In this document: positions 28,442-30,295 of the stretch, piece by piece
Position numbering within the stretch: position 1 is the first letter of the stretch
Layout of the letters: the number at the start of each line of letters is the position of its first letter
Assembly: GCF_003334815.1 (NCBI RefSeq)
Contig: NZ_QOWO01000009.1
Length of the DNA: 64,000 nucleotides
Origin: Escherichia coli
Lineage (GTDB): Bacteria; Pseudomonadota; Gammaproteobacteria; Enterobacterales; Enterobacteriaceae
Strand: one strand, 5' to 3'
Position numbers and translations under genes: made by a program
Notes under the pieces: generated by a model
The model's input: only the letters and a program-made list of their open reading frames with translations
Database searches by the model: none
What the model was told of the DNA's origin: nothing

Positions 28442-30295
28442 ATGAAAATGACTTTGCCGTTTAAACCCCATGTGCTGGCGCTAATTTGCAGTGCCGGGCT
28501 TTGTGCCGCCTCTACCGGGCTATATATAAAAAGCCGCACAGTGGAAGCGCCTGTGGAACCGCAATCGACACAACTGGCTGTGTCTGACGCTGCCGCGGTT
28601 ACGTTTCCTGCAACGGTTTCCGCACCTCCCGTAACACCCGCCGTCGTCAAATCCGCATTCAGCACTGCACAAATAGATCAATGGGTCGCGCCCGTCGCGC
28701 TGTATCCCGACGCCCTACTTTCGCAGGTGCTGATGGCATCAACCTATCCGACAAACGTTGCTCAAGCAGTGCAATGGTCGCACGATAATCCACTTAAACA
28801 AGGCGATGCTGCTATTCAGGCGGTATCTGACCAGCCGTGGGACGCCAGCGTTAAATCACTGGTGGCATTTCCACAATTGATGGCATTGATGGGCGAAAAC
28901 CCGCAATGGGTGCAAAACCTGGGCGATGCTTTTCTGGCCCAGCCGCAGGACGTGATGGACTCGGTACAGCGATTGCGGCAACTGGCGCAACAAACCGGCT
29001 CGCTGAAGTCATCAACCGAACAGAAAGTTATTACCACAACGAAGAAAGCTGTACCGGTAAAACAGACAGTCACGGCACCCGTCATACCATCCAATACAGT
29101 TTTAACTGCCAACCCCGTCATTACAGAGCCGGCAACAACCGTCATTTCCATTGAGCCCGCCAATCCTGATGTGGTCTATATTCCCAACTACAACCCAACC
29201 GTGGTTTACGGGAACTGGGCCAATACTGCGTATCCGCCGGTTTATCTGCCACCACCAGCCGGAGAACCGTTTGTTGACAGCTTTGTACGCGGATTCGGCT
29301 ATAGCATGGGCGTTGCTACCACGTACGCACTATTCAGCAGCATCGACTGGGACGACGACGATCATGACCATCATCATCATGACAATGATGATTATCATCA
29401 CCACGATGGCGGTCATCGTGACGGTAATGGCTGGCAACACAACGGCGACAACATCAATATCGACGTCAACAATTTCAACCGTATCACCGGTGAGCATCTT
29501 ACTGATAAGAATATGGCATGGCGGCACAATCCAAACTACCGTAATGGTGTGCCCTATTATGATCAGGATATGGCAAAGCGGTTTCATCAAACCGATGTCA
29601 ACGGCGGAATGAGCGCCACGCAATTACCTGCCCCAACGCGCGACAGCCAGCGTCAGGCGGCAGCAAATCAGTTTCAGCAACGAACACACGCCGCACCAGT
29701 CATTACACGAGATACCCAACGTCAGGCAGCGGCACAGCGGTTTAATGAAGCTGAACACTATGGGAGCTATGACGACTTCCACGACTTCAGCCGTCGCCAA
29801 CCACTGACCCAGCAACAAAAGGACGCCGCTCGTCAGCGTTATCAGTCCGCCTCGCCTGAGCAGCGCCAGGCAGTTCGCGAGAGAATGCAGACTAACCCGA
29901 AGATCCAGCAGCGAAGAGACGCAGCGCGTGAGCGCATTCAGTCCGCCTCGCCTGAGCAGCGCCAGGCGGTTCGCGAGAAAATGCAGACTAACCCGCAGAA
30001 CCAGCAGCGAAGAGACGCAGCGCGTGAGCGTATTCAGTCCGCATCACCAGAGCAGCGCCAGGTGTTTAAGGAAAAAGTACAGCAGCGCCCACTGAATCAA
30101 CAGCAACGTGATAACGCCCGCCAGCGTGTTCAATCGGCATCACCTGAACAACGTCAGGTTTTTCGGGAGAAAGTTCAGGAGAGCCGCCCACAACGTCTAA
30201 ACGACAGTAACCATACTGTCAGGCTGAATAACGAGCAACGGTCAGCAGTATGCGAACGTCTCTCTGAACGTGGAGCAAGAAGACTGGAAAGGTAA
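28442..30295 (+). CDS. yacH: uncharacterised DUF3300-family protein with signal peptide, His/Asp-rich tract and four 32-aa tandem repeats
   Basis: 617-aa ORF; N-terminal hydrophobic signal; internal low-complexity and repeat regions read directly from sequence. Confidence 0.85.
   Translation: MKMTLPFKPHVLALICSAGLCAASTGLYIKSRTVEAPVEPQSTQLAVSDAAAVTFPATVSAPPVTPAVVKSAFSTAQIDQWVAPVALYPDALLSQVLMASTYPTNVAQAVQWSHDNPLKQGDAAIQAVSDQPWDASVKSLVAFPQLMALMGENPQWVQNLGDAFLAQPQDVMDSVQRLRQLAQQTGSLKSSTEQKVITTTKKAVPVKQTVTAPVIPSNTVLTANPVITEPATTVISIEPANPDVVYIPNYNPTVVYGNWANTAYPPVYLPPPAGEPFVDSFVRGFGYSMGVATTYALFSSIDWDDDDHDHHHHDNDDYHHHDGGHRDGNGWQHNGDNINIDVNNFNRITGEHLTDKNMAWRHNPNYRNGVPYYDQDMAKRFHQTDVNGGMSATQLPAPTRDSQRQAAANQFQQRTHAAPVITRDTQRQAAAQRFNEAEHYGSYDDFHDFSRRQPLTQQQKDAARQRYQSASPEQRQAVRERMQTNPKIQQRRDAARERIQSASPEQRQAVREKMQTNPQNQQRRDAARERIQSASPEQRQVFKEKVQQRPLNQQQRDNARQRVQSASPEQRQVFREKVQESRPQRLNDSNHTVRLNNEQRSAVCERLSERGARRLER
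29843..30200 (+). repeat. four tandem copies of a 96-bp (32-codon) repeat inside yacH (unit about SASPEQRQAVRE+MQTNP++QQRRDAARERIQ)
   Basis: Copies begin at about 29843, 29939 and 30035 (first two near-identical), with a fourth diverged copy at about 30130. Confidence 0.85.

Follow-up and report, generated by a model that had tools for sequence, protein, structure and literature searches.

We analysed yacH in a 64,000-nt stretch of Escherichia coli DNA (contig NZ_QOWO01000009.1 of assembly GCF_003334815.1; hereafter, the window). The coding sequence lies at 28442..30295 on the plus strand and encodes 617 amino acid residues plus the stop codon. A preliminary description of this DNA, made from the letters alone, had named the open reading frame (ORF) yacH; the ORF listing gives the same coordinates, and the RefSeq annotation in K-12 strains concurs, calling it yacH, DUF3300 domain-containing protein, and placing it between acnB and lpdA. 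The gene is divergent from acnB and convergent with lpdA. It was found in all 5,426 complete E. coli genomes searched, with at least 80% of its length covered in 5,370. The 3' part of yacH carries four tandem units of 96 nt, and we found that the number of these units differs among E. coli genomes.

The 96-nt array in yacH

Four head-to-tail 96-bp repeats had been reported in the 3' third of the gene, and our repeat search recovered the same arrangement: a single family at 29806-30189, made up of four copies of 96 nt that are spaced 96/96/96 and are 100/85/68/63% identical to copy 1. The array spans 74-94% of the gene length. In codon register, it extends from 29807 to 30190 (aa 456-583) and encodes four 32-residue units, each with the motif SASPEQRQ(A/V); with 30 Gln and 29 Arg plus Lys among 128 residues, the product is Gln/Arg-rich, as had also been described. 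Tandem Repeats Finder reported 2.3 copies with 93% identity at 29842-30062, corresponding to the two most similar copies. In the best register, 91 of the 96 positions agree between 29847-29942 and 29943-30038, including two exact runs of 30 nt. When the array was compared with itself at an offset of 96 nt, 225 of 288 positions matched, against 76.7 ± 7.5 in 5000 shuffles (z = 19.8). As in other coding minisatellites, the direct repeats of the yacH array stand head to tail with a constant period, here one divisible by 3 (32 codons). An assembly artefact was rejected as the origin of the array, which thousands of independent complete genomes carry.

We typed the units by their second halves, which are QAVREKMQTNPQ in type M, QVFKEKVQQRPL in type V, and QVFREKVQESRP in the terminal type T. 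Repeat search and codon register place unit 1 (TQQQKDAARQRYQSASPEQRQAVRERMQTNPK, aa 456-487) at 29807..29902 on the plus strand. It is followed on the same strand by unit 2 (IQQRRDAARERIQSASPEQRQAVREKMQTNPQ, aa 488-519; 29903..29998), a unit type that numbers 1 to 3 among alleles, and by unit 3 (NQQRRDAARERIQSASPEQRQVFKEKVQQRPL, aa 520-551; 29999..30094), whose V-type second half is missing from B2-type alleles such as L005, L006, and L008. Unit 4 (NQQQRDNARQRVQSASPEQRQVFREKVQESRP, aa 552-583; 30095..30190) is the terminal unit, found in all nine E. coli alleles with typed units. The C-terminal tail of the protein (aa 584-617, ...NNEQRSAVCERLSERGARRLER; 30191..30292, plus strand) is basic and conserved in the alignment, and other genera have a similar ending. 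At position 29920, the window has C and K-12 MG1655 has G; the C creates the 30-nt identity of units 2 and 3, so that the units are marginally more alike in the window than in the K-12 reference.

Upstream of the array, at 29639-29752 (aa 400-437), there are two RD(S/T)QRQAA helix motifs. Unlike the variable array downstream, they are almost invariant in Enterobacteriaceae (R400, D401, Q403-A407, R427).

Copy number and unit architecture in E. coli

The preliminary description proposed the array as a potential site of copy-number variation and named an invariant repeat number as the result that would speak against this. The cross-strain comparison gave three, four, and five units among E. coli genomes. 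Using a query of the array plus its flanks, we sampled 60 rows at even steps down the ranking of 5,417 genomes. Four units (span about 651 nt) were present in 32 genomes and three units in 27, and one genome was divergent. In 22 of the 27 three-unit genomes, the span was about 555 nt, exactly one unit less; the other five were of the B2 type and matched the first 400 nt only, and the B2-type allele L005 translates to three units. An independent whole-gene sample of 40 evenly spaced rows from 5,426 genomes contained 21 four-unit and 17 three-unit alleles. In sampled E. coli, four units thus account for about 53% and three units for about 45% (together about 98% of genomes), and five units are rare. 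Whole-gene spans were 1854, 1758, 1764, 1815, and 1782 nt. Among the protein clusters, the rare forms included the five-unit allele (P0004, 648 aa) and an allele with a partial duplication of 17 aa (P0048). Intact YacH products of 585, 617, and 648 aa were found. In the K-12-like class (at least 99% identity), all 14 sampled genomes had four units; because of this, the yacH array does not count as hypermutable in the way that a contingency locus does.

A separate in-frame duplication of 45 aa (AAPVITRDTQRQAAAQRFNEAEHYGSYDDFHDFSRRQPLTQQQKD) is located just upstream of the array, at about 29690-29830, in the 662-aa products P0001-P0003. Its junction falls at a short common DAA sequence, and it occurs on 27 contigs, which belong to three clusters.

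Five architectures were distinguished: M-M-V-T in K-12, O157, and L003; M-V-T in L001 and L002; M-M-T in L005, L006, and L011; M-M-M-T in L008; and M-M-M-V-T in P0004. This set requires several independent events, and separate E. coli lineages have lost or gained different units. A comparison of L001 with L003 showed no substitution over about 1,720 aligned bases; all that sets these two alleles apart is a single 96-nt unit plus an indel of 39 nt in the His/Asp tract, a second length-variable region described below. As they are free of substitutions and differ in indels, such indels arise faster than point mutations.

All unit changes, as well as the other length variants of intact alleles, are multiples of 3. 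Disrupted yacH genes are rare, namely, the frameshifted pseudogene L004 and the gene of H1 (NZ_CM129855.1), which is interrupted by an IS1A insertion. Against other E. coli and E. albertii alleles, the ratio of nonsynonymous to synonymous substitution rates (dN/dS) in the array was 0.03-0.20, a range that is subject to the alignment of paralogous units. It resembles that of most of YacH and is far under 1, indicating that the array-encoded sequence is under purifying selection.

Which units carry the D/E and S/P variants differs among L008, L009, K-12, and the window, and the G-to-C change at 29920 in the window relative to K-12 reproduces the state of the next unit. This is the pattern expected of gene conversion between units. 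Unit gain and loss probably occurred by unequal recombination or replication slippage between neighbours that share exact 30-nt runs.

The remainder of YacH and the flanking regions

YacH had been described as secreted. We found an N-terminal export signal or signal anchor at aa 1-30 (MKMTLPFKPHVLALICSAGLCAASTGLYIK; 28442..28531, plus strand), judged from hydrophobicity and conservation. The only hydrophobic segment of the protein, aa 9-29, is flanked by Lys residues (K2, K8), with a Kyte-Doolittle maximum over 19 residues of 1.9 at aa 11-29, and the N-terminal segment is almost invariant among 54 orthologues. There is also a possible A-x-A type cleavage site (C-A-A, cut before S). The long, unusually conserved hydrophobic stretch would fit a signal anchor as well as a cleaved Sec signal. 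The earlier claim is thus backed in part: a single N-terminal hydrophobic segment with basic flanks supports export. A lipoprotein was rejected, as there is no lipobox [LVI][ASTVI][GAS]C in the sequence and the residue before each Cys is Ile or Leu (LIC, GLC).

The DUF3300 domain (PF11737) occupies aa 75-333 (28664..29440, plus strand; Pfam hmmscan E 1.5e-78, model positions 2-227 of 227), with dN/dS of 0.01-0.07. NCBIfam gave no family above the cut-off for the whole of YacH or the tail alone, and a PDB sequence search with YacH gave no match.

The His/Asp-rich tract, at aa 301-336 (29342..29449, plus strand), contains 10 His and has a net charge of -11. It is even more variable in length than the array: in the 120 closest cluster representatives, there were 10 length classes (30-52 aa), and the 7-aa unit DNDDYHH (21 nt) was present in 0-3 copies. 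A frameshift deletion in this tract of yacH has been reported in a Salmonella isolate (PMC10048834).

The yacH genes of K-12 and B2-type strains differ by 8-9%, and the intergenic region, acnB, and lpdA by about 1-2%. In strain AST85 (L010), the divergence of yacH reaches 29% at the nucleotide level (72% amino acid identity), that of the acnB-yacH intergenic region is about 12%, and the acnB and lpdA segments again differ by about 1-2%. In the linker at aa 191-234, dS is about 1.0 between allele classes. The excess of divergence in yacH over its flanks suggests old allele classes or imported DNA.

Between 18000 and 42000, only four positions (28867, 29558, 29920, and 37119) distinguish the window from K-12 MG1655. 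Three of these four are inside yacH, which makes up 7.7% of the compared length; the chance of this is about 0.002. The differences in yacH are a synonymous one at A142, Y373 versus H, and D493 versus E. The exact yacH sequence of the window occurs in none of the 5,426 complete genomes, the best matches all differing at three positions. An old sequence version, a sub-strain, and a mutation are candidate causes.

The divergent intergenic region between acnB and yacH, at 28241..28441, is the putative yacH promoter region. A scan with the consensus promoter found no sigma-70 site for yacH in this region; a site for the sigma-28 holoenzyme has been identified between yacH and acnB by systematic evolution of ligands by exponential enrichment (SELEX) (PMC5493296). 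Downstream of yacH, RNA folding revealed a hairpin with flanking A and T tracts at 30308..30336 (11-bp stem, -17 kcal/mol, z = -2.2). Located between the convergent genes, it is probably a bidirectional intrinsic terminator common to yacH on the plus strand and lpdA on the minus strand. The pattern scan overlooked this hairpin; base pairing between the flanking A and T runs, which lengthens the stem, is the probable reason. A search of 28100-30500 against Rfam gave no match. In the B2-type alleles L005 and L006, the spacer between yacH and lpdA is about 170 nt longer, and in L008 an IS621 transposase gene lies directly downstream of yacH (2733-3054 in L008).

Relatives and possible role of the array

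Orthologues of YacH were found in at least 12 species of Enterobacteriaceae, with the signal, the DUF3300 core, the His/Asp tract, and the Gln/Arg-rich tail all kept. YacH matches the full DUF3300 model (E 1.5e-78), whereas the 32-aa array is Escherichia's own within the family: the unit is confined to Escherichia, where E. albertii carries three, and other genera have a Q/R/T-rich segment of 41-86 aa in which a shorter unit of about 17 aa, QQQRR(D/E)AAK..L.NPTA, occurs two to four times. Judged by eye from the sequences, the 32-aa unit can be recognised as two such shorter motifs in a row.

The full-length AlphaFold2 model, built on an alignment of 54 sequences, had a mean predicted local distance difference test score (pLDDT) of 56.6. 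Its confident parts were the DUF3300 helices at aa 85-185 (pLDDT 77-92) and the repeat region at aa 456-581 (pLDDT 77-94). Helices in the array were predicted at 457-469, 472-484, 486-501, 504-515, 518-533, 536-564, and 568-581, that is, two short helices per 32-aa unit with breaks at SASPE and TNPQ. A model of the tail alone gave the same pattern of two helices per unit (predicted template modelling score (pTM) 0.26). The array has a net charge of +14 and a mean hydrophobicity of -0.6 to -0.8. Its helices are not amphipathic, with hydrophobic moments of 0.04-0.25 and a mean of 0.17 versus 0.27 in shuffled sequences, and apolipoprotein-like amphipathic helices were rejected on this mean.

Proline-punctuated helical tails, such as apolipoprotein-type repeats and TolA domain II, resemble the array in having short polar or charged helices separated by Pro, in modules that can be added or removed. 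However, no sequence or fold relationship of YacH to either was found, and its non-amphipathic helices make lipid binding of the apolipoprotein type unlikely.

When the tail was compared with 1.84 billion representative proteins, 20 matches were obtained at E <= 1e-3, most of them E. coli fragments; the remaining matches, outside Escherichia, were small secreted PEQR-repeat proteins without annotation. Weak sequence matches connect the tail with P0134 and P0137-P0139, small signal-peptide proteins composed almost wholly of (S/T)PEQRxxhRE repeats. In addition, P0131 (494 aa, from a metagenomic or genomic representative) is a MotB/ZorB-like OmpA-domain protein with about eight tandem copies of LTPEQRQEIREGGVPVDPQRLETLEDAERALSR. 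Taken together, these proteins suggest that exported proteins share a widespread repeat motif that is as yet uncharacterised. The preliminary description had given the function of YacH as unknown, which agrees with our searches, as no relative of known structure or function was found.

Strain-variable head-to-tail chromosomal units of tens of bases, as in yacH, are also used as variable-number tandem repeat (VNTR) loci in multiple-locus VNTR analysis (MLVA) of E. coli and Shigella. One of these loci, ms11, has a unit of the same size, 96 bp (panel of Gorge et al. as reproduced in PMC8215070). The identity of the yacH array with ms11 was rejected, since a search of the window that allowed up to 3 mismatches located neither of the ms11 primers. 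A literature search found nothing describing the yacH array as a VNTR or tandem repeat, nor anything on the localisation of YacH.

The few published data on yacH connect it with envelope stress. The gene is regulated by CpxR, being 3.87-fold up upon NlpE overexpression, and is repressed by protamine; the deletion mutant survives protamine better; and reduced transcription after cecropin A has been cited (all in PMC9600279). A table in the same paper labels YacH 'Extracellular', without experimental support there, and the label is probably a prediction. Under butanol stress, a mutant deleted for rob expressed yacH at a lower level (PMC7537768). The regulation by CpxR and Rob and the protamine phenotype (PMC9600279, PMC7537768), together with the His/Asp tract, fit the earlier suggestion of a role in envelope or metal stress.

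We consider it probable (roughly 60%) that YacH is an exported DUF3300 envelope protein whose minisatellite-encoded C-terminal quarter acts as a modular basic helical spacer or contact tail. YacH would be exported by the Sec system and then reside in the envelope. Unequal recombination or slippage between adjacent units would add or remove units, and gene conversion would shuffle the variants among them. The Gln/Arg-rich array may form a modular, hydrophilic, positively charged spacer or a tail that contacts polyanions, in which whole two-helix modules could come or go without misfolding; this would account for the several coexisting lengths.

Several points weigh against this interpretation. 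Tertiary packing was not predicted (pTM 0.26-0.35), and the helices may be disordered in isolation. Sequence and fold searches found no homology that ties the array to any activity. As other genera manage with a Gln/Arg-rich segment of 41-86 aa, the extra units may add nothing. The constant number of four units in 14 of 14 sampled K-12-like genomes means that the rate of change is not high, and the proposed recombination or slippage is read from sequence patterns.

A strong rival, to which we give a real though minority chance, is that the array is a neutral low-complexity tail: the mutational mechanism would be the same, unit number would have no cellular effect, and the three/four-unit polymorphism would mark ancestry only. 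Consistent with neutrality, both lengths are frequent and are found whatever the source of the strain, the array position holds only 41-86 aa in other Enterobacteriaceae, and neither a tertiary fold was predicted nor a homologue of known function found. The dN/dS of 0.03-0.20, however, points to constrained residues. Also against neutrality, the reading frame is kept in nearly all genomes, the unit number is confined to 3-5, and the terminal unit and C-terminal tail are present in all nine typed E. coli alleles.

It is also conceivable, but rather unlikely in our judgement, that long-term diversifying or balancing selection acts on an exposed envelope protein and that unit number tunes its interaction with an external agent and is not neutral. 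This possibility is raised by the old, deep allele classes (8-9% and 29%, against roughly 1-2% in the flanks) located between two housekeeping genes that are among the most conserved and by the presence of two independent length-variable modules. The external agents may be cationic peptides, phage or bacteriocin, or metals.

Another explanation regards the units as LTXXQ-type repeats, which would make the tail a periplasmic chaperone or stress modulator like CpxP, Spy, or ZraP; we regard it as very unlikely. The array resembles these proteins in its motifs (LTQQQ..., SPEQRQxxRExxQ), CpxR regulation has been published (PMC9600279), and two weak relatives of the tail have Pfam matches, one to LTXXQ at 4e-05 and the other to Metal_resist at 0.06. 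The DUF3106/LTXXQ 'PEQR' proteins likewise have repeated short helices with x-(S/T)-P-E-Q-R-x-x-h-R-E in exported proteins, as in YacH, but a significant profile match and a fold match to YacH are both lacking. Neither LTXXQ (PF07813) nor Metal_resist (PF13801) matched the full YacH or the tail alone at E <= 10; the best Pfam match of the tail alone was to DUF3106 (PF11304; i-E 0.034, 15.1 bits). The PDB sequence search was empty, and Foldseek against the PDB, a weak test with models of such low pTM, gave best E values of 0.65 and 8.6 and no CpxP, Spy, or ZraP. Furthermore, the helices have no hydrophobic face, their mean moment being under the shuffled value. Membership in the CpxP/Spy/ZraP (LTXXQ) group was rejected on the Pfam, PDB sequence, and fold results, which leave only the weak motif resemblance.

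Finally, a contingency locus for phase or antigenic variation, with high-frequency switching of a surface epitope, would be in line with otherwise identical alleles that differ by indels only, with the much greater divergence of yacH than of its flanks, and with the second hypervariable tract in the gene, but it is highly improbable, since a unit that is a multiple of 3 inside an ORF allows no on/off switching, the 14 sampled K-12-like genomes all have four units, and only three main length states exist.

The yacH array adds a new, documented case to a familiar class of variation, the coding minisatellite, and is not a new mechanism or system. It documents a high-frequency polymorphism of protein length in a core, envelope-stress-responsive gene of E. 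coli and flags yacH as a local hot spot of diversity. The 96-bp differences between alleles separate major lineages and offer a simple marker by PCR size. The natural three-, four-, and five-unit alleles, together with the variants of the His/Asp tract, are material for structure-function studies of YacH and the DUF3300 family.

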